A stretch of DNA of 64,000 nucleotides from Bacillales bacterium UBA6380. Lineage in GTDB: Bacteria > Bacillota_I > Bacilli_A > RFN20 > CAG-826. Below, piece by piece: positions 137 through 43,490 of this stretch. Position 1 is the stretch's first letter; each line of letters begins with the position of its first letter. The stretch lies in the NCBI GenBank assembly GCA_002438785.1, contig DJQS01000011.1, forward strand, positions 27,996-91,995, in the 5' to 3' direction. Below the pieces are notes generated by a model that worked only from the letters and a program-made list of their open reading frames with translations, had not been told where the DNA came from and did not search any database. The translations under genes and the position numbers were made by a program.

Positions 137-928
137 TTGTTTAAAGAATATTATAATAGCGTCATGATTTGGTTATTTAGATTTTTGTTTGTATTTTTAT
201 TTTCAATTTTCGGTTACTTAATAGGAGCTATACCTAATAGTGTAATAATAGGCAAATTATTTTTTCACAAAGATCCTCGAGATTATGGTAGTCATAATGC
301 TGGTGGAACAAATGCTGGTCGTGTTCTTGGAAAAAAAGCTGGCGTAATCGTTATTTTACTCGATGGATTAAAAATTGTTGTTCCATTTTACATTGTATTT
401 TTTTTATTAAAGAAAACCACGTTTTTTCTCAATTTAATGAACGATGGATTTGAATTGAATGCATTTGGGTTAGGTAATACAATTAGTGATTTGGCGCTTT
501 ATTTAACAGCCTTATCTGGAATAATTGGACATTGTTACTCTATTTATTTAAGGTTTTCTGGTGGTAAAGCCGTATCAACATATTTAGGAACAGCTTGCTG
601 TATAAGTTATTTTACTTTTCCCCTTTGTGGCTCTTTATTTTTTGGCATTTTAAAATGTAAAAAATTTGTTAGTTTGTCATCATTAATTTCTACCTCAGCT
701 TTCACTATTTTTAGTTGGATTATTTATATTACTTATTCATTTAATTTTAATAATTTGAAAATTATTAATATATTAAATAATTTCTTATGGTTTGGCTATG
801 GACCAAATATTTCGATTTATATGCCGATTGTAATGACAATTGCATCAATAATTTTAATTATAAAACATATTCCAAACATTCATCGTTTAGAAAATAAAAG
901 TGAATCTAAAATACATTGGATGAAGTAA
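137..928 (+). CDS. plsY: Glycerol-3-phosphate acyltransferase PlsY (acyl-phosphate:G3P acyltransferase)
   Basis: N-terminal GAIPNS...HGSHNAGGTNAGRVLGKKAG motif and C-terminal NIHRLENKSESK tail typical of PlsY. Multi-TM protein. 263 aa is longer than typical because of an internal insertion. Confidence 0.8.
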   Translation: MFKEYYNSVMIWLFRFLFVFLFSIFGYLIGAIPNSVIIGKLFFHKDPRDYGSHNAGGTNAGRVLGKKAGVIVILLDGLKIVVPFYIVFFLLKKTTFFLNLMNDGFELNAFGLGNTISDLALYLTALSGIIGHCYSIYLRFSGGKAVSTYLGTACCISYFTFPLCGSLFFGILKCKKFVSLSSLISTSAFTIFSWIIYITYSFNFNNLKIINILNNFLWFGYGPNISIYMPIVMTIASIILIIKHIPNIHRLENKSESKIHWMK

Positions 929-2763: not shown

Positions 2764-3324
2764 TTAATTATTAGCTCTAGAATCGTAAGCACCAGTATCA
2801 GTTCTTACATAAACTAAATCACCATTATTTATAAATAATGGAACTCTAATTTTTAACCCAGTCTCAACAATAGCATCCTTCATTGCTTTGTTAACAGTAT
2901 CACCTCTAACAGCAGGTTCACATTCGACTATTTTTAAAGCGACTTTCGCAGGTAAATTAATACCCAAAATTTCATCTTCATATGTCACAATTTCGACTTC
3001 AAGATTTTCAGTTAAAAATTTCTTTTCCCATTCAAGTCTACTCGCTGGAATTTCAACTTGTTCGAATGTGTTATTATCCATGAATACAAGAAAATCTCCA
3101 CTATCATAAAGATAATTCATCTTCTTTTTTTCAAGTCTAATAGTTTCTACTTGGTAACCACTATTGGCACTCATTTCAGTAATTGCACCAGTTCTTACAT
3201 TTTTAACTTTAACTTTAGCAACCATTTTTCTCATAGCAGTTTTATTTAATAGAATGTCGATAACATAATAAATGTTACCTTCTTCCAAAAAATAATTGCC
3301 AGGTCTTAATTCAGTAACGTTCAT
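2764..3324 (-). CDS. efp: Elongation factor P
   Basis: 186 aa with a KOW-like N-terminus and OB domains. Typical EF-P length and sequence pattern (VKVKNVRTG...EVEIPASR...). Confidence 0.9.
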   Translation of the reverse strand: MNVTELRPGNYFLEEGNIYYVIDILLNKTAMRKMVAKVKVKNVRTGAITEMSANSGYQVETIRLEKKKMNYLYDSGDFLVFMDNNTFEQVEIPASRLEWEKKFLTENLEVEIVTYEDEILGINLPAKVALKIVECEPAVRGDTVNKAMKDAIVETGLKIRVPLFINNGDLVYVRTDTGAYDSRANN

Positions 3325-16976: not shown

Positions 16977-18173
16977 CTAATTAAAGTGATAAAAATATAA
17001 ACATTTATAATATTTAATATTTTCAATGTCATTATCTATCTCTATAATTTTTTCAAATTGTTCTTGTAAAAAAACAAAAATGAAAAAATGAAAAAACATA
17101 TAATTAATCGAAATAAAACCAGTAAATCCTATGTAAATTAAACTTAGGCAAATTGTTAAAAAAATGAGAAAATATCTTTTAAAATTATTATATGATATAC
17201 ATTCATAAGACTGACTATTTAAAGCTTTTACTTCATTTTTAAATTCATCTCCATTGATATTTGAATTACTTAATAATTTATTTTCAATATTTTCGAGATT
17301 ATTCTTTTTTGTTTTATAAAACTTATTATCAATTTTTTTAAAAATATATTGAAAAGCAAAAGTTATTGCTAATATTAATAAACTCCAATAATTATTAATT
17401 CCTAGAATAATACAGCCAAAAACAAGCATAAAAAAACTTGAAATGAATTTTACTGGCGTTGATACTAATGAAAATTTGAATTTACTCATTGGTAAATAAT
17501 ATTTATTAAAGTCTTGTCTTTTAAAAAAGCATTCTTCAAGAAAAATTTGATTATCAAAATATTTTAAAGACAATATTATTATTTTTTGGTATAACAACTC
17601 AAATATTATATATGATAAAAATAAAAGAAATGAGATCATAAAACTAAATTTCTTATCAATAAAAAATGTAGCCGTGATTAAAGAAAGCAAACTTAGAAAT
17701 TGAAATAAAATAGTTATCCAAAAAAAATATTTTGGATATACACGGATTTTTTTTAATTTAAAATTACTCGTTAATATATTACTAACTTCTAATATTTCTC
17801 CATTCCAAATTTTAAATAAATTATTTTTAGAAATCCAATAGATGCCTGAAGAAGGATCATAAACTTTAACTCTACTTTTAGTTATTTTCTTAATTAATAC
17901 CATATGTAAGTTATCTTTTTTATTAATTACAATTAAAAAAGGGCATGAGACAGTTTTTTTAAAAAGAGCTTTTTTATCAATAATACGTGAAGCTTTTATA
18001 ATTACTCCTTCTTTTTTTGCTAAGTTAATTAGATCTCTTAATGAAGACGATGTTTCAACATTAACATGCGGATAATAAAGATAATCTGTATTTTTGTAAA
18101 CAATTGCTAAAAGCATTTTAATACAAGTGACGCCGCAGTCTTTTTCGCCGATTTGCTTTATATAATATTTCAT
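16977..18173 (-). CDS. Membrane protein with an N-terminal peptidase C39 (double-glycine leader peptidase) domain and no ABC ATPase domain
   Basis: The N-terminus IKQIGEKDCGVTCIKMLL matches the Q/Cys motif of C39 peptidases. HMVLIKKI...VKVYDPSSG matches the His/Asp motif. About six hydrophobic helices follow and there is no Walker A or B anywhere. Confidence 0.6.
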   Translation of the reverse strand: MKYYIKQIGEKDCGVTCIKMLLAIVYKNTDYLYYPHVNVETSSSLRDLINLAKKEGVIIKASRIIDKKALFKKTVSCPFLIVINKKDNLHMVLIKKITKSRVKVYDPSSGIYWISKNNLFKIWNGEILEVSNILTSNFKLKKIRVYPKYFFWITILFQFLSLLSLITATFFIDKKFSFMISFLLFLSYIIFELLYQKIIILSLKYFDNQIFLEECFFKRQDFNKYYLPMSKFKFSLVSTPVKFISSFFMLVFGCIILGINNYWSLLILAITFAFQYIFKKIDNKFYKTKKNNLENIENKLLSNSNINGDEFKNEVKALNSQSYECISYNNFKRYFLIFLTICLSLIYIGFTGFISINYMFFHFFIFVFLQEQFEKIIEIDNDIENIKYYKCLYFYHFN

Positions 18174-18221
18174 AATTTACCTCCTATATACAAGTCGTAG
18201 TAAATTATAAAAATTTGGGGG
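18174..18221 (-). promoter_or_regulatory. Conserved 15-nt core (TACGACTTGTATATA on the minus strand) in a 7-bp inverted repeat that encloses the RBS of the C39-domain gene, with an upstream C5 tract
   Basis: Plus strand reads cat-AATTTAC-ctccTATATACAAGTCGTA-GTAAATT-ataaaaattt-GGGGG. The core is identical to one upstream of comEA at 39336..39350. The C5 tract lies 17 nt from the core in both copies. Confidence 0.55.
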
Positions 18222-18223
18222 AT

Positions 18224-18250
18224 AAAAAAAGATCATCTTACAATGATCTT
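18224..18250 (-). terminator. Rho-independent terminator of rpsU
   Basis: AAGATCAT-cttaca-ATGATCTT stem-loop followed on the minus strand by a T7 run. Confidence 0.7.
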
Positions 18251-18574: not shown

Positions 18575-19231
18575 TTACATTAATTTAGCACCGGAACTAG
18601 TTCCGATTCTTGTTGCACCTGCTTCAATCATTTGAATCATTTCGTCATGGGTTCTTACACCACCCGCAGCTTTTACACCCATTTTAGGTCCAACAGTTTC
18701 TCTCATTAATTTAACATCTTCGACTGTTGCGCCATGTTTAGAAAAGCCAGTACTAGTTTTAACAAAATCAGCGCCAGCTTCTTTAGCTAATAAGCAAGCT
18801 CTAACTTTTTCTTCATCAGTTAATAGACAACATTCAATTATCACTTTCAAAACATGATTCTTGCAGGCATTTTTTATTAATTTAATTTCGTTTTTAACAT
18901 AAAAATCATCTTTTTCTTTTAATTTAGAAATATTAATAACCATGTCAATTTCATCTGCTCCTCTTAAGATGGCATCTTCTGTTTCAAAGACCTTAGATTC
19001 AGTAGTCATACTTCCAAGAGGAAATCCTATTACTGTGCAAACTAAAACATCGGAGCCATCCAATTCCTTTTTAGCTAGTTCTATAAACGAAGGATTAATA
19101 CAAACTGATTTAAAATTGTATTTTTTTGATTCCAAACAGAGAGATTTTATATCATCATTCAAAGCATCAGCTTTTAATAATGTATTATCAATAAATTTAT
19201 TATATTTTAAATTATTCATCTTATACTCCAT
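18575..19231 (-). CDS. deoC: Deoxyribose-phosphate aldolase
   Basis: Class I aldolase motifs CTVIGFPLG and FVKTSTGF (Schiff-base Lys). 218 aa ORF, though the true start is probably MNNLKYN a few codons in. Confidence 0.85.
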
Positions 19232-19262
19232 AAAAAAAGGCCTTACAAAGCCTTATTTTGTT
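19232..19262 (-). terminator. Putative rho-independent terminator after rpmF
   Basis: AAGGC/GCCTT stem overlapping the rpmF stop codon, followed on the minus strand by T7. The stem is short. Confidence 0.4.
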
Positions 19263-19526: not shown

Positions 19527-20819
19527 TTAATCTAAACATGAATTATCCTTTTTAAAAGTAATATTAAGTATTTTATCTTTTATATTAATGTCAGATTTGA
19601 TAAAACATTCTAAATAATTAGAACTGTGTCCCTTGTATCCACCTCTTCGGGAATCATAACTTTCAAATAAAAAATCAATATCTTTACCATAAAATTTATT
19701 TTCATAATTGTGTTCTAGTTCATCTGAAAGTTCAATTAAGCGATTAACACGATTCTTTTTTTCTATATCAGAAACTTTATTCGGAAATTTGCTTGCTGCA
19801 CTGCCATTTCTATCACTATAAGGAAATACATGTACTTTTGCAAAATTTATCTTCCTTATAAAATCCAATGTTGCTTCAAAATCCTCTTCAGTTTCACCAG
19901 GAAAGCCAACAATCACATCAGTTGTAATAGATATATCAGGTTTAATCTTTCTAATTTTATCTATCTTCAAAATATAATTTTCAAGATTGTATTTTCTATG
20001 CATCAATTTTAAAATTTTAGAACTTCCACTTTGAAGTGGAACATGTAAATGATTTGCAATATTAGGATAATCTTTTAATAAATTAATAAAATCTTCATCG
20101 ATTTGACTTTCTTCTATTGAAGATATTCGTAATCTATATAAATCAGGGTTATTAATAAGTATTTCTTTTAATAATTTAGAAAATGTCATGCCATTATTAA
20201 AGTCAAGACCATAACTGCCTTGATCAATACCAGTTAAAATGATTTCTTTATAGCCATTATTAATTAATTTCTTAACTTCATTTAATATAGATTCTATAGG
20301 TCTACTTCTTGATGGCCCTCTTACAAATGGAATCAAACAATATGTACAAAAATTATTACAACCATCTTGAATTTTCAAAAAAGCTCTTGTCTTATCAAAA
20401 TAATTATCTAAAGAAATATTTTCGTATGTTTTGTCTTTAAGAGCATTATTTTTTATTAATATAGGTTGTCTATTAGTTAAAAATTCATTTATATAATCAA
20501 ATATCTTACTTCTTTGATTAGTTCCTAAAACAATATTTGCTTTTAAATTATTAATTACGTAATCACCTTCATATTGTGAAAAACACCCCATAACACAAAT
20601 TATTGCATCACGATATTTTATTCGATATTGTCGAATCATTTTTTTAGACTTACTGCTACTTGTTTCTGTTACAGCACATGTATTAATAATTATTAAATCA
20701 GGTGTATCAGTAGAATCTTTTTTAATTTCTATAAAACCGTGCTTCATTAAATCATTAGCAACTGCTTCAACCTCGTAACTATTAACCTTACAACCTAAAA
20801 AATCTATTAAAAATTTCAT
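19527..20819 (-). CDS. mtaB: tRNA threonylcarbamoyladenosine methylthiotransferase (MiaB-like, YqeV/MtaB)
   Basis: MTTase N-domain Cys (CKVN...NTCAV...MGC), radical SAM CNNFCTYC, and a C-terminal TRAM domain. 430 aa. Syntenic with rsmE. Confidence 0.8.
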   Translation of the reverse strand: MKFLIDFLGCKVNSYEVEAVANDLMKHGFIEIKKDSTDTPDLIIINTCAVTETSSSKSKKMIRQYRIKYRDAIICVMGCFSQYEGDYVINNLKANIVLGTNQRSKIFDYINEFLTNRQPILIKNNALKDKTYENISLDNYFDKTRAFLKIQDGCNNFCTYCLIPFVRGPSRSRPIESILNEVKKLINNGYKEIILTGIDQGSYGLDFNNGMTFSKLLKEILINNPDLYRLRISSIEESQIDEDFINLLKDYPNIANHLHVPLQSGSSKILKLMHRKYNLENYILKIDKIRKIKPDISITTDVIVGFPGETEEDFEATLDFIRKINFAKVHVFPYSDRNGSAASKFPNKVSDIEKKNRVNRLIELSDELEHNYENKFYGKDIDFLFESYDSRRGGYKGHSSNYLECFIKSDINIKDKILNITFKKDNSCLD

Positions 20820-21208
20820 TTCGAAACCTCATTTTTTAATCTTTCATACAATTTATAACTAATAAATCCATTTTCATATAAACCATTAATAAAATTTATT
20901 TTAGTAGAATTATAGTATAAATCTAGTATATTTTTAGCTTTTTGTTCTATTCCTTTACTATCGAAAAACTTCAAGTTTCTATCATATAAATAAATAAGAT
21001 TATCTATAAATCCATCGTTATTTAAAATTAAAATAACATGAGTATGTGGATTTAAATAAGCACGAGATGTAGAATCAGAACTAACAAAAATTAAGTTCTT
21101 CAAACTATTGATTTTCTTCTTTTTTTTGTAAATATGATAATAATTATCATTAAGTATTTGATTATTATTCCTACTTTTATAAAGTGTTTTTAATATTGAA
21201 AATGCCAT
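20816..21208 (-). CDS. Hypothetical protein (130 aa, no recognisable family) inserted between rsmE and mtaB
   Basis: ORF with the same codon usage as its neighbours. Its 4-nt overlaps with both flanking genes suggest translational coupling. Confidence 0.45.
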   Translation of the reverse strand: MAFSILKTLYKSRNNNQILNDNYYHIYKKKKKINSLKNLIFVSSDSTSRAYLNPHTHVILILNNDGFIDNLIYLYDRNLKFFDSKGIEQKAKNILDLYYNSTKINFINGLYENGFISYKLYERLKNEVSK

Positions 21209-28703: not shown

Positions 28704-30107
28704 TTATTTTTTGCGAACTGGTGTATAAATATATTTATTTTTTAAAGGCTCTTTACTATAAAAGCCAAGATAAACTAAGCCATCCATACTAGTTCGTGCA
28801 GTCTCATAAGCGCAATTTAAACATTTTTTATACTGAGAAATTGTGTATTTCATTCCTAAAGTGCAATGTCTAGCATAAAAATAAGCTTGTCCATTTGATA
28901 AACTTGGGTAAAGTTCTTTTAAGTGATTTTCTAATTTTTTTGCCTCTTCTTCATTTAAGCCTTCTGGCAAAGAATTAATTGCAATATTCTTATTATAAAT
29001 TAAAGTTGGCTGACCATTAGTTGGCAAAGTAGCTTGTTCATTTTGCAAATTGTCTTCATTATTTTGAATAATTTGATTCTTTTGTTCGGTTTTAGATTTA
29101 GCGTCTTCATGACTAATATCCAAAGCATAATTTTCATTAAAAATATCACTTTTCTTACTCAATACTAATTTATCGACAAAGTCGTCTATTCTAGGTTCTA
29201 AAATTCTGAAAACATAGTCTAAAAAATAAGTTAAATCAAAACTTTTTTGTGACTCAGTTAAAGCCTTTTCTAAATTATCATTATCATTTAATAAGCATTC
29301 AAAGTTAAATAAAGAAGCTACACTTTCTAAATCATTATACGCTAATATTTGTTTAAATAATAGAATTGCAATTTCCTCATTATAAACTTCGAAAGGTTTT
29401 ATATAATAGCAAAAATAAAGTGTACAAACACTTTTCAAAATCGGAGAAATTTTAACATTATTTATAAAATTAAATAGATTATTCATTGAATTTTCAATTT
29501 TATTATGAGGGATACCAAAATATATTTTGTTTACTAATACTCTATTTAATCCATTATCTATTTCTTTAGTTCGATAGAATTCGGTTAATTCATTAGTACC
29601 TAGTAAAATAGAATATAATTTAGCTAAAAAATCTTCATTAATATTTTGATTATAGTTCTTTTCAATTTCATTTAAAGCATTTAAATAATGCATTATTAAT
29701 ATTTCATTTGCTGAAAGTATGCTAGAATCATTAGTAATAATATTCTTTAATTTAGAATCATCTATATTAATTTTATATTTTTTTTCAATTTCTCGCAAAA
29801 TGTCATAAAATCTATCATTTGAAAATTTCTTTTTCCCTTCATAAGAAAGTTTAGAAAAATTAACCATGCAGCGTAATAATTTTCTTTCAATATTATTTAC
29901 TTTTTCAACTATTGCTGGAGCTAAACATATGGAATAGCTTGTGCCATCAATATGTTCTAAAGCTAAGGAATATGAAAAATTTGCTCTATATTCTAAAATT
30001 TGTTTCCAAATATTATCAATAATAGGTAGCTTCATAGCCTTAGCTACATCATTTTTGGTTGCATAATTTACATTTGTAAAACGCATTCCTAGTTCATTAT
30101 TTGCCAT
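28704..30107 (-). CDS. Fic-domain-like protein with a degenerate active-site motif (putative pseudo-Fic)
   Basis: aa 237-245 read KPFEVYNEE, aligned to the Fic HPFx[D/E]GNGR motif and followed by IAILLFKQIL, equivalent to the RxxRLL helix. His, Gly-Asn-Gly and Arg are all replaced. Confidence 0.4.
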   Translation of the reverse strand: MANNELGMRFTNVNYATKNDVAKAMKLPIIDNIWKQILEYRANFSYSLALEHIDGTSYSICLAPAIVEKVNNIERKLLRCMVNFSKLSYEGKKKFSNDRFYDILREIEKKYKINIDDSKLKNIITNDSSILSANEILIMHYLNALNEIEKNYNQNINEDFLAKLYSILLGTNELTEFYRTKEIDNGLNRVLVNKIYFGIPHNKIENSMNNLFNFINNVKISPILKSVCTLYFCYYIKPFEVYNEEIAILLFKQILAYNDLESVASLFNFECLLNDNDNLEKALTESQKSFDLTYFLDYVFRILEPRIDDFVDKLVLSKKSDIFNENYALDISHEDAKSKTEQKNQIIQNNEDNLQNEQATLPTNGQPTLIYNKNIAINSLPEGLNEEEAKKLENHLKELYPSLSNGQAYFYARHCTLGMKYTISQYKKCLNCAYETARTSMDGLVYLGFYSKEPLKNKYIYTPVRKK

Positions 30108-36755: not shown

Positions 36756-38774
36756 TTAGAAAATACTAAAATAATAAGTGATTGTACCTTCAATATCAGT
36801 TCTTCTAATCTTAATGTCTAATGCATTTAATTTTTCTAATGTTTCATAATGAGGATGATTAAATTTATTATTTTTTCCGCATGAAATAATAGCTTCTTTT
36901 GGATTGCATTTTTCCAAAAAATTATATGATGATGAACTGTTCGATCCATGATGCCCAACTTTTAAATAATCGCATTTTATATTATTATCAATTATTTCGT
37001 TTTCGACCATTGAGCTTGCATCTCCCATTAATAAAAATTTATAATCTTTAATACAAAAACTTAAAACAAGTGATTTATCATTCTCAGAATAATTACTTTT
37101 AGAAAAAGGGTTGAGGTTTTCAAAAGTAAAATATCTCGTTTTTATTGGAAAAACATTGCTATTATCAATTATTTTTTTAATTTTAAAATTATGTGATAAT
37201 TGCTTTAATGAACCATAATGATCAAAATCATAATGTGTTATAAAAACATAATCTAAGTTATAAATACGTTTTTTTCTTAAAAAAGGAATTAATACATTAG
37301 ATGCTATATCATAATTTAAATTACCACCAGTATCAATTAAAATAGATTCTGTTTTATATCTAATTAATGTTGAATCACCTTGTCCCACATTTATAAAATT
37401 AATTTCGCAAGTAAATTGATTTTTAATTGGAAGGATATAAATAACAATACAAAGTAGATTGATTATTATTAACTTATTTTTATAATAAGTAAAATTAATT
37501 TCGAAAAAATATATTGTAACGATTAATAAAGCAAAAAATAAAACTAAATAAATTTGATTAAATGGCGGTATATACACATCAAATAAAGAAATATTTATAT
37601 TAGTGAAACAATTTATCGTAACTCTAAATATTTTTTCATAAAGACTCAAATGTAGACCATAAAAATATAGTATACTAATTAAAAATAAAAATTTAAAATA
37701 TGGTAATAATAAAATATTCAATAATATGTAAACTAAATTAAATCCGTTATTTGTTGAAATTATAAAAGGTAATAATATTACATAAAAAAGCGTTTTTGAA
37801 CGTATTCTCTTCTTGATATTTTTTTCATATCCAAGATAGTTTTTAAATAAATAAAATGAAATTACAATTAATAAAGGTATGTAAAATGATTGGCTATAAA
37901 TCAACGTTTTATTTATCAAAATAAATATCAAAAATAATAATAGTTTAATTGACAATTTATATTCATCATTTTTATTATCAATCAAAAATATTCCTAATAA
38001 AAACATTGAAACTGTCCTTATAAATAAAAACCGATGAAGATTCAAAATAAATATTGGTGTAAATACAATTAAAGAAATTACTCGACTTGTTCTATCACTA
38101 AATTTATACGCCAATAATTTAGATACGCCATATAATATAAAATTTATAAAAGTGCCGCATCCTGATACTAAATTTATTATCATAAGTTTTTTACTTATGT
38201 AATATAAATTTGAATTTATTTCTATTTCTCCAAATAGGAGGCTCGACATAAAAATCTTTGCATTATTATCTTGTATAGCGTTTAAAAAATTTCGCTTTAT
38301 CTTATTAAATCTAATTGGAGATTTAACTAAAATTTCGCTTTTTTTAATATTTAATTTTCTATATATATCGTTATTATTTAAAAATTCTTCAAAGTTAAAA
38401 GAACTTTCATATGAAGTAAAATCTAAATCTTGAAAAGTTCCGTCTATTTTTAAAATGTCGAATTGATCTATTTGGTTATTTTCCGAATAACAATAAAATT
38501 TTTCTTTTAAAGTTTTAAAAATAAAGTAATTATCTTTTCTTTTAAGAACTATTCCTATTAGATTGTTAGATGTTTTTTCCTTAAAGCAATTTATTGATCT
38601 TAATATACCAAATGCAAAAAATACTGTCGCAACTAAAATTAATTTTTTTGTTTTAAATCTTTTAATTAATAAATAAATTACAATAAGTAAAAATGTTATA
38701 GTTAGAATTAAATACTTTATTTTAATTAATAATAATCCTGCTATGTATGATAATAATAGCAATAAAACAAACAT
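36756..38774 (-). CDS. comEC: DNA internalisation competence protein ComEC/Rec2
   Basis: About ten TM helices, a competence domain, and a C-terminal metallo-beta-lactamase domain (HYDFDHYG, VGHHGS). 672 aa. Confidence 0.85.
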   Translation of the reverse strand: MFVLLLLLSYIAGLLLIKIKYLILTITFLLIVIYLLIKRFKTKKLILVATVFFAFGILRSINCFKEKTSNNLIGIVLKRKDNYFIFKTLKEKFYCYSENNQIDQFDILKIDGTFQDLDFTSYESSFNFEEFLNNNDIYRKLNIKKSEILVKSPIRFNKIKRNFLNAIQDNNAKIFMSSLLFGEIEINSNLYYISKKLMIINLVSGCGTFINFILYGVSKLLAYKFSDRTSRVISLIVFTPIFILNLHRFLFIRTVSMFLLGIFLIDNKNDEYKLSIKLLLFLIFILINKTLIYSQSFYIPLLIVISFYLFKNYLGYEKNIKKRIRSKTLFYVILLPFIISTNNGFNLVYILLNILLLPYFKFLFLISILYFYGLHLSLYEKIFRVTINCFTNINISLFDVYIPPFNQIYLVLFFALLIVTIYFFEINFTYYKNKLIIINLLCIVIYILPIKNQFTCEINFINVGQGDSTLIRYKTESILIDTGGNLNYDIASNVLIPFLRKKRIYNLDYVFITHYDFDHYGSLKQLSHNFKIKKIIDNSNVFPIKTRYFTFENLNPFSKSNYSENDKSLVLSFCIKDYKFLLMGDASSMVENEIIDNNIKCDYLKVGHHGSNSSSSYNFLEKCNPKEAIISCGKNNKFNHPHYETLEKLNALDIKIRRTDIEGTITYYFSIF

Positions 38775-38776
38775 TT

Positions 38777-39322
38777 TTAATCAGTTAAAATAATATAATT
38801 TTTTAGTTTATTATAAGTTGCATTACCAATTCCACTTACATTCATTATGTCTTCAATAGTTTGAAATAATCCATTTTCATCACGATATTTTATAATTGAT
38901 TCGCAAATAGTTTTCCCTATACCATCTACATATGTCAAATCTTCCGGATCATTGAATGAATTAATATTCACTTTTTGAATTTCATCCTCGGAACAAATAT
39001 CTGTAGGATCATATCTAGGTGGGATGTAATATGATACATTTTTACTAATCTTAGCATTAGGCAAATAAGCTCTTGTATCAGCCTTATCAGTTATTCCACC
39101 TGCCTTATCAATTAAATCTTGCATTACTGAGCCTTCATCTAAAAGATAATTCCCTGGACTAACAATATAGCCTGAGATTCCAATGGAATTTCTTGTTACT
39201 TCTGTAATGTCATCATTATCGCTATTATTTCTAAAACTATTGAAATCAATGAATTGCATACAAACTAGAGCAATAATTGTAGAAACAGCAACACCAATTA
39301 AAATTTTTAATGTCAATGTCAT
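38777..39322 (-). CDS. comEA: Competence protein ComEA (DNA receptor)
   Basis: N-terminal TM helix, SLBB-like domain, and C-terminal tandem helix-hairpin-helix (GIGKTICESII...VSGIGNATYNKL). Immediately upstream of comEC. Confidence 0.8.
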   Translation of the reverse strand: MTLTLKILIGVAVSTIIALVCMQFIDFNSFRNNSDNDDITEVTRNSIGISGYIVSPGNYLLDEGSVMQDLIDKAGGITDKADTRAYLPNAKISKNVSYYIPPRYDPTDICSEDEIQKVNINSFNDPEDLTYVDGIGKTICESIIKYRDENGLFQTIEDIMNVSGIGNATYNKLKNYIILTD

Positions 39323-39328
39323 AAAAAA

Positions 39329-39372
39329 ACCTCCTTATATACAAGTCGTATATTAAAAGGAGGTAATGGGGG
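39329..39372 (-). promoter_or_regulatory. Conserved 15-nt core (TACGACTTGTATATA on the minus strand) in a Shine-Dalgarno-sequestering hairpin upstream of comEA, with an upstream C5 tract
   Basis: mRNA strand reads CCCCC-auu-ACCUCCUU-uuaaUAUACGACUUGUAUAUA-AGGAGGU-U7-AUG. The 8-bp arms ACCTCCTT/AAGGAGGT are perfect complements. An inner ATATAC/GTATAT inverted repeat is also present. Confidence 0.55.
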
Positions 39373-39387
39373 TAGATTCAGATACTT

Positions 39388-39873
39388 TTATTTAATTTCT
39401 AAAATTTCAATTTGATAAGGCTTAACAGCTTTAACACTAACTATATCACCAACTTTTTTACCAATTAAAGCTTTTCCTAATGCACATTCATTACTAATTT
39501 TTAAATTATTAGGGTCTTTTACAGGGTCAGATTCGATGCTTGAAACAATTTTTACAGTAACTTCAGCATTTGTATCTAGTTCTTTATATCTAATTATACT
39601 TGAAATATTAATAGTTTTTGCTTTTTTATTATTATCAACAATCTTCGCATTATTTAATATATATTCTATTTCCTGAATACGTCCTTCAATTTCAGCTTGT
39701 TTATTTCTAGCAGCATCATAATCAGCATTTTCTGATAAATCACCCATAGCTCTTGCAGCTTGTAATTGCTCAATAACTTCTGGACGTGCAACATCAAGTA
39801 ATTGTCTATATTCTTTTTCTAATTGTTCTTTACCTTCAACTGTTAATATATATTCTTTATTATTTGTAGCCAT
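39388..39873 (-). CDS. greA: Transcription elongation factor GreA
   Basis: N-terminal coiled coil with acidic tip (DLSENADY) and a C-terminal FKBP-like domain. 161 aa. Confidence 0.9.
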   Translation of the reverse strand: MATNNKEYILTVEGKEQLEKEYRQLLDVARPEVIEQLQAARAMGDLSENADYDAARNKQAEIEGRIQEIEYILNNAKIVDNNKKAKTINISSIIRYKELDTNAEVTVKIVSSIESDPVKDPNNLKISNECALGKALIGKKVGDIVSVKAVKPYQIEILEIK

Positions 39874-39895: not shown

Positions 39896-39903
39896 ATTAT
39901 ACA
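39896..39903 (-). promoter_or_regulatory. Extended -10 promoter element (TGTATAAT) upstream of greA
   Basis: Minus strand reads cTTGTATAAT about 25 nt upstream of the AAGGAG RBS. There is no good -35. Confidence 0.35.
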
Positions 39904-39930
39904 AGTTTCAATACTTTTTTTCTATAAATT

Positions 39931-43218: not shown

Positions 43219-43227
43219 AAAATCTCC

Positions 43228-43470
43228 TAAAAATAAAAAAGTCCCTAAGATTTAGGAACGAATCATCGCGGTACCATCCTAATTTTTAATCGTTTCGATT
43301 AAACACTTAATTGACAAAACACATGTAACGAAAATTGGCTTATGTTTATATCTTTATATGATTTTCACCAAACACATACTCTCTAAAAAAGATATATAAC
43401 ACTTCTTTTTTCAAAAATATTATATATTAAACAAAGTTTTAATGTAAATATGTTTTTATTTATATAAAGC
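43228..43470 (-). ncRNA. T-box riboswitch leader of alaS
   Basis: On the mRNA strand: an AGAGAG box and GGUGAAA (GA motif), then AAAUUAGGAUGGUACCGCG (T-box consensus, UGGU to pair with tRNA-Ala discriminator A), then terminator GUUCCUAAaucUUAGGgAC plus U6 immediately before the alaS RBS. Confidence 0.75.
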
Positions 43471-43490
43471 ATATATGTTAAACTAATTTC

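Follow-up and report, generated by a model that had tools for sequence, protein, structure and literature searches.

A conserved hairpin between greA and comEA in gut Bacilli, best read as a terminator that also masks the comEA ribosome-binding site

CT-rich motifs complementary to the Shine–Dalgarno (SD) sequence, located in the non-transcribed part of σ54 promoters, silence read-through transcripts (Levy et al., bioRxiv 10.1101/086108); demonstrations of such insulation to date come from synthetic libraries in E. coli. In S. pneumoniae, comEA/EC and radC are co-regulated late-competence genes of a regulon that also includes cibAB, and the ComX promoter motif consists of a T-rich stretch, TMCGAATA, 7 nt and the start (PMC6560143). 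Promoters of σI carry a C-rich region and an A-tract at −35 and CGWA at −10 (PMC10575876, PMC6056542), with A−11 as the flipped-out, pocket-inserted and essential base (PMC10575876). Intrinsic terminators combine a GC-containing stem-loop with an adjacent U-tract, a few tens of nucleotides past the end of the co-oriented upstream gene, and ROSE and FourU thermometers, like SD-sequestering riboswitches, pair the SD with an anti-SD located upstream of it. The junction between greA and comEA in an uncultured gut member of the Bacilli resembles each of these systems in part. It lies on the minus strand of a 64-kb window (the whole stretch of DNA analysed; 26% GC, standard code), and the literature searched, which was of limited coverage, yielded no report of a terminator that masks the SD of a competence gene.

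The local gene order is alaS-ruvX-DUF1292-greA-comEA-comEC-holA. The greA gene (39388..39873, minus strand; 161 aa, Pfam GreA_GreB_N and GreA_GreB, NCBIfam GreA above the curated cutoff) is directly upstream of a comEA-like gene (38777..39322, minus strand; 181 aa, Pfam SLBB and HHH_3, NCBIfam ComEA HhH region above the cutoff), whose product has its best named relative in Candidatus Onthovivens (69% identity). Two nucleotides past comEA, in the same operon, follows a comEC/Rec2-like gene (36756..38774, minus strand; 672 aa, Pfam Lactamase_B). Its product matches NCBIfam ComEC_Rec2 with E=1.9e-46, at 158 bits and hence below the cutoff of 190 bits, and judging by this match is a divergent ComEC; a metallo-β-lactamase domain is its sole Pfam domain match. 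Elsewhere in the window, two conserved open reading frames are without Pfam match (28704..30107, 467 aa, and 20816..21208, 130 aa, both minus strand). The alaS leader (about 43219..43490) holds a terminator-like hairpin (43259..43241) ahead of its SD, and Rfam reports no T-box, riboswitch or tRNA in the 64 kb despite the presence of alaS, glyS and other aminoacyl-tRNA synthetase genes.

Read along the minus strand, the RNA has the order greA-UAA-N23-ACCUCCUU-N20-AAGGAGG-U7-AUG(comEA). The two 8-bp arms and the 20-nt interval described in an initial annotation are present, with ACCTCCTT (39364..39357) and AAGGAGGT (39336..39329) as their DNA sequences. The 5′ arm, ACCUCCUU in the RNA (39357..39364, minus strand), is an anti-SD with the sequence of the 16S 3′ end, and lies 23 nt past the greA stop codon UAA (39390..39388, minus strand). 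The inner ATATAC/GTATAT palindrome reported there is likewise real and provides an inner stem (39353..39348 with 39342..39337) within the 20-nt loop region (39337..39356, minus strand). The 3′ arm, AAGGAGGU (39329..39336, minus strand), contains the comEA SD AGGAGG (39335..39330), and no second SD occurs in the leader. It is followed by a U7 tract (39323..39329, minus strand) that is both the tail of the putative terminator and the spacer between SD and the comEA ATG (39322..39320, minus strand). The layout had been given as AAGGAGGU-U7-AUG; there are seven T in all, but the first of them lies inside the 3′ arm, where it forms the last stem base pair, so that the correct order is AAGGAGGU-U6-AUG or AAGGAGG-U7-AUG. 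Overlooked in that annotation were the position of the element on the minus strand right after greA and the reading of the stem with its 3′ U-tract as an intrinsic terminator. In the MFE fold (−14.9 kcal/mol in a 91-nt context), the 8 bp of the arms, perfectly paired and including 5 G-C pairs, are extended beyond a 3-nt bulge by 6 further pairs enclosing a 5-nt loop, and the hairpin occupies most of the 65-nt greA–comEA spacer. Six contigs of the same species, obtained from different samples, show 100% identity across this spacer.

By its anatomy, a stem with a U-tract at this distance from the greA stop codon corresponds to an intrinsic terminator, and we consider it very probable that the comEA hairpin terminates greA transcription and masks the SD at the same time. 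No other terminator was found in the greA–comEA spacer of the source species, the stem and U-tract being the only candidate; an automated terminator scan gave no call at the hairpin, whose 3-nt bulge and effective loop lie outside the scan rules. Whole-leader folding gave a z-score of only −1.75, with 9 of 200 shuffles equally stable, and the significance of the hairpin therefore rests on the exact match of its arms and on conservation, not on energy alone. The pattern CCTCC-N3-30-GGAGG occurs once in the 64-kb window, compared with 0.01 occurrences expected. In contrast to other intrinsic terminators, the 3′ arm is here the SD of the next gene, the U-tract is its SD–AUG spacer, and a conserved promoter-like motif resides within the loop and the 5′ flank.

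To compare this arrangement across relatives, comEA loci of 80 related species were retrieved, in about 65 of which greA is the upstream neighbour, and 76 distinct comEA leaders were analysed; the species counts take no account of phylogeny. Since a MAFFT alignment of 75 leaders lost the register of the arms, covariation was tested directly in Python. Most species share a common layout of an A-rich run, an anti-SD arm, a loop of 8–20 nt, an SD arm, T5–8 and ATG, and the intergenic spacers, at 56–80 nt, are very short. A run of at least four T after the SD is present in 52/74 comEA leaders but in only 3/79 other genes. Among the comEA leaders, such a run follows the SD arm in 46 of the 52 without another terminator and in 6 of the 24 with one (Fisher p=7.6e-8; 76 leaders, phylogeny ignored). 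Of the 65 comEA leaders in which the SD is strong, 62 have it paired as a 3′ arm, and 37 of the 65 possess an exact 5-nt anti-SD at most 45 nt upstream. The latter is the case for 1/53 other genes in the same DNA, and this sole match among the controls is comEA itself with another start, which leaves 0 genuine control genes. Furthermore, the two arms covary: an SD of AGGAGT is accompanied by ACTCCT in 9/9 cases and AGGAGA by TCTCCT in 4/4, with zero cross-matches. The earlier statement that the sole comEA SD is fully paired is upheld. Selection acts on this pairing, to judge from the covariation of the arms and from the median predicted cost of opening the SD, which is 10.4 kcal/mol for comEA (n=74) and 2.7 kcal/mol for other genes (n=79; Mann–Whitney p=1e-17).

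Conservation of the hairpin is not uniform. SD pairing is maintained clade-wide, but the perfect arm emphasized in the initial annotation is missing from the closest relatives (L007 and L008, 82% ComEA identity), which partly bears out what that annotation had named as a refutation, namely loss of the complementary arm in near relatives. In the group to which these belong (L007–L013, 57–82% ComEA identity), greA has a canonical terminator of its own, and both a perfect anti-SD arm and a T-run are lacking. Conversely, L036, L055, L058, L073 and L076 keep the SD hairpin without a T-run, either behind a separate terminator or behind a gene other than greA. Its retention in leaders that have another terminator and no T-run indicates, as far as this comparison of leaders tells, that SD masking is selected in its own right.

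Several related arrangements were noted in passing. In L063 (about 2815..2850), a separate greA terminator is built from ACCTCCTT...AGGGAGGT and a T-run with no start codon after it. Between this terminator and comEA lies another SD hairpin, an arrangement suggestive of a module copy that was duplicated or has decayed. In the comEA leaders of L012 and L014 (about 2940..3000), the SD is GGGGG and pairs perfectly with an upstream CCCCC, so that the C-run of the motif described below may double as the anti-SD arm in these species. At deoC (18575..19231, minus strand), a terminator-like hairpin AAGGC...GCCTT with T7 (19232..19256) runs into the ATG (aaggctttgtaaggcctttttttATG) and no SD is present outside the hairpin, which makes this another overlap of terminator and start site in the genome.

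The initial annotation had classified the comEA hairpin as the second copy of a shared element. What the copies have in common is, however, not the hairpin but a two-block motif together with the SD. In the comEA leader, the first block is the C-run CCCCCA (39367..39372, minus strand), situated like a −35 element, and the second is the core ACGACTTGTATA (39338..39349, minus strand), which resembles a −10 element with a putative start region and is identical in three copies of the source species. A further copy (18171..18221, minus strand) reads CCCCCA(18221..18216)-N17-ACGACTTGTATA(18198..18187)-T-AGGAGG(18185..18180)-N6-ATG(18173). It has a masking inverted repeat of its own, ATAATTTAC (18208..18200) with GUAAAUUAU (18180..18172) on the minus strand, and a separate rpsU terminator, AAGATCATTGTAAGATGATC with T7 (18224..18250, minus strand), ends 2 nt before its C-run. 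The consensus of the three source copies is CCCCCA-N17-ACGACTTGTATA-N1-3-AGGAGG-N6-7-ATG, and the sites are located upstream of comEA-comEC, of a C39 peptidase gene and of a peptide-radC operon. The flanks and the hairpin arms differ among the three copies, yet each has its own masking repeat with the 5′ arm always inside N17 (ACCTCCTT/AAGGAGGT at comEA, ATAATTTAC/GTAAATTAT at C39 and GTATTTTTAC/GTGAAAGTAT at peptide-radC).

CCCCC-N14-22-CGAC occurs 2 times in the window compared with 0.04 expected, and in ~96 kb of source-species DNA the core is found in motif context at the three genes only. Across 17 sites from three operons and a dozen species, CTTGT is invariant (17/17); a C-run of at least four C lies 21–23 nt upstream of it in 13/17 sites and is absent at 4/17 (L022, L023, L100 and L101), and the SD follows 4–8 nt downstream. 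Variants are concerted within a species, with TACGA occurring 3 times in the source and ATACTA 4 times in L007-like sites. RNAalifold returned no consensus RNA structure for 10 type-A leaders, which speaks against the element being a structured RNA. An SD hairpin with a T-run likewise occurs at C39 and peptide-radC in distant species, and one distant genome has comEA and C39 leaders that agree at 60/62 positions, among them 24 nt 5′ of the stem. The C-run is not regarded as phase-variable, as C5 is unchanged across the six same-species contigs. A candidate greA promoter, TAGAAA-N17-TATAAT (39896..39924, minus strand), has CTTG immediately 5′ of its −10 element (aaCTTGTATAATtat), and this CTTG resembles the CTTGTATA core of the shared motif.

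The gene behind the second window copy (16977..18173, minus strand) encodes a protein of 398 aa with a Peptidase_C39 domain (Pfam PF03412) and a membrane domain; NCBIfam assigns it to the peptidase-domain ABC transporters in its N-terminal part only. The N-terminal peptidase domain retains the DCG context of the catalytic Cys and no ABC ATPase domain is present. This protein evolves fast, with 62% identity in the nearest relative, and the gene order rpsU-C39-ybeY-cdd-era is conserved in the clade. The radC operon emerged from a metagenome pattern scan with 8 matches, 6 of which are chance occurrences in high-GC contigs, whereas L094 led to radC. The source-species ortholog of this peptide-radC set carries the motif, resides on the same contig as comEA and lies downstream of valS, and in L094/L095 the interval from valS to the module is without a terminator. 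Directly upstream of radC, and overlapping it, a conserved 60-aa peptide is encoded (6001..6183 in L095, the source species; 378..560, minus strand, in L094). Its N-terminal LSxxELxxIxVG resembles a double-glycine leader, after which come a hydrophobic helix and the conserved motif IPGGW(K/S)F; zero Pfam or NCBIfam families match the peptide. It is a possible substrate of the C39 protein, and the cibAB genes of the ComX regulon are a double-glycine bacteriocin system.

On the basis of these comparisons, we propose that the terminator and a promoter are superimposed. RNA polymerase arriving from greA would transcribe ACCUCCUU...AAGGAGGU-U6, the stem would form and most transcripts would stop in the U-tract. 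Transcripts escaping termination would retain the anti-SD arm and leave comEA untranslated, which would insulate the gene against read-through. Productive comEA-comEC mRNA would instead come from a dedicated promoter within the hairpin, composed of CCCCCA as the −35-like block, 17 nt holding the anti-SD arm, and ACGACT(TGTATA) as the −10-like block with the start region. Starting just upstream of AGGAGG, this mRNA would be devoid of the 5′ arm and its SD would be free. Since the same motif and a masking arm also precede the C39 gene and peptide-radC in the source species, the motif would constitute a competence-type regulon signal, read by an alternative sigma factor or an activator. We infer promoter activity, start position and factor identity from sequence, and regard it as slightly more likely than not that a promoter inside the hairpin drives comEA-comEC.

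Folding predictions agree with such a difference between two RNA species. Freeing the comEA SD is predicted to cost 11.1–11.8 kcal/mol in RNA with the arm and 0.5–2.9 kcal/mol in RNA starting downstream of it; the view of the initial annotation that translation requires melting or remodelling of the hairpin would hold for arm-containing RNA. At the C39 copy, the predicted cost of opening the region from SD to AUG falls from 6.8–7.9 kcal/mol with the 5′ arm to 1–1.5 kcal/mol without it. At this copy and in the closest relatives of the source, a strong terminator ends 1–18 nt before the C-run, leaving no room upstream, and a promoter, if the genes are transcribed, must thus be sought within the module, whose only conserved blocks are arranged as hexamer-N17-hexamer at fixed spacing. 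Of 45 leaders from distant relatives, 29 have a −35-like hexamer ending 11–14 nt 5′ of the anti-SD core, versus 9.7±2.7 after shuffling, a position that would place the arm in the promoter spacer and the −10 element where the loop begins. A block with TCG on the 5′ side of the arm was set aside, being only weakly enriched in these species (15/44 versus a background of 17%). Against the embedded promoter count the four sites without a C-run and a putative start that leaves 0–3 nt 5′ of the SD, an unusually short leader. The −10-like block CGAC/CGTC/CTAC fits no characterized sigma consensus, and sigA is the only sigma gene in the 64-kb window, in which no alternative one was found.

A reading of the site as a σ70 promoter with TATATA as the −10 element was rejected: position −7 is variable (T, A or G), a −35 element is missing, and the start would fall inside or past the conserved SD. 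The ComX/σX com-box likewise features a short −10-like box (TACGACTT here) with T-rich sequence upstream, at comEA-comEC and radC, but differs in that the present motif has an additional C-run at the −35 position and a box abutting the SD. Membership was not retained, as TACGACTT matches TMCGAATA at 6/8 positions and relatives have CTACTT, CGTCTT or CCACTT. The σI promoters of Bacilli and Clostridia share a C-rich −35 element and a −10 element starting with CG. Here, CCCCC is present at 13/17 sites and AAA follows it in some only (win_C39, L007 and L013). The σI class was also discarded, with C in place of A−11 and CGAC or CGTC at most sites instead of CGWA.

A parallel in logic is provided by the insulators of Levy et al. 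in E. coli σ54 promoters such as glnKp. Their anti-SD is at most about 25 nt 5′ of the SD, and ACCTCCTT ends 21 nt upstream of AGGAGG. In those promoters the anti-SD lies upstream of the gene's own start, so that only read-through RNA is silenced; at comEA, the arm would lie upstream of the start proposed above, and silencing of read-through RNA is predicted. By contrast, the motifs of Levy et al. are 3–5 nt long, whereas the comEA leader has a perfect 8-nt arm that also belongs to a terminator; the arms covary, extend to about 75 species and three operons, and the promoter type differs.

The main competing explanation is that the module is transcribed from the upstream housekeeping promoters of greA, valS and rpsU, terminates and masks the SD by default, and is opened in trans. 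An RNA-binding protein or small RNA recognizing the single-stranded loop ACGACUUGUAUA, with or without the C-run, would then unmask the SD and antiterminate in all three operons, and competence genes in these uncultured gut Bacilli would be on from housekeeping promoters only with the factor present. Such a mechanism would account for the core being in the hairpin loop of all three source copies despite unlike arms, and for SD masking being conserved clade-wide and at three operons; moreover, read-through RNA certainly exists in L094/L095, where no terminator separates valS from the module. However, the strong unregulated terminator just before the C-run, at copy 2 and in the closest relatives, would make read-through RNA scarce exactly where the module is best conserved. 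The rigid N17 spacing without covarying structure suits recognition of DNA over that of RNA, distant relatives show an excess of the −35-like hexamer 5′ of the arm, and Rfam families give zero matches. We therefore judge regulation in trans at the RNA level to be unlikely.

Alternatively, the hairpin could be a plain terminator, in which a compact 26% GC genome has reused the G-rich SD as one arm and masking is devoid of regulatory meaning. A stem with a U-tract right after greA, the very short spacers and the tracking of the T-run with the lack of another terminator are what this explanation predicts. It does not explain why the SD hairpin is kept in lineages without the T-run that have a separate terminator, why it recurs at C39 and peptide-radC behind other upstream genes, or why exact anti-SD sequences are absent from genuine control genes. 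In addition, an SD cost of about 11 kcal/mol would nearly abolish translation if this were the sole mRNA. Incidental overlap is accordingly improbable.

The initial annotation had likened the fully paired SD to an RNA thermometer, whose melting by heat would free it. This analogy fails on stability, given 8 perfect pairs including 5 G-C and 6 more: an unchanged MFE structure is predicted from 20 to 50 °C, its free energy moving from −14.4 kcal/mol at 37 °C to −10.5 kcal/mol at 50 °C. The gut habitat indicated by the sample sources is of near-constant temperature, and the U-tract would be left unexplained, which renders a thermometer very improbable. A ligand riboswitch, the other analogy drawn there, is barely tenable: expression platforms typically sequester the SD and contain a stem resembling a terminator, but the 23 nt between greA stop and stem offer no space for an aptamer, no conserved structured region upstream was found in the leaders compared, and flanks differ among the three copies. 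Rfam detects no family, thermometers included, in the whole 64-kb window at gathering thresholds and none at the locus at E≤1. From ROSE, FourU and riboswitch platforms the comEA leader is thus distinguished by a perfect heat-stable stem, a U-tract, the lack of an aptamer and the lack of a family match.

Taken together, the hairpin is real and conserved, and we regard it as reasonably probable that it acts as the greA terminator and also silences read-through RNA, around a probable competence-specific promoter common to at least three operons. The same eight bases may thereby end greA transcription and keep the DNA-uptake genes untranslated on leaked RNA. The design would be compact, with a terminator, a putative promoter and a ribosome-binding site overlapping within about 50 nt. 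If the embedded promoter is true, this locus represents a natural, deeply conserved and covarying case of read-through insulation.

For the control of competence genes in reduced-genome gut Bacilli, such as Onthovivens-like and RFN20-type metagenome-assembled genomes, the 12-nt core with its C-run at comEA-comEC, radC and the C39 peptidase gene supplies a concrete, testable cis-element, and the motif might serve to predict competence regulons across hundreds of species not yet in culture.
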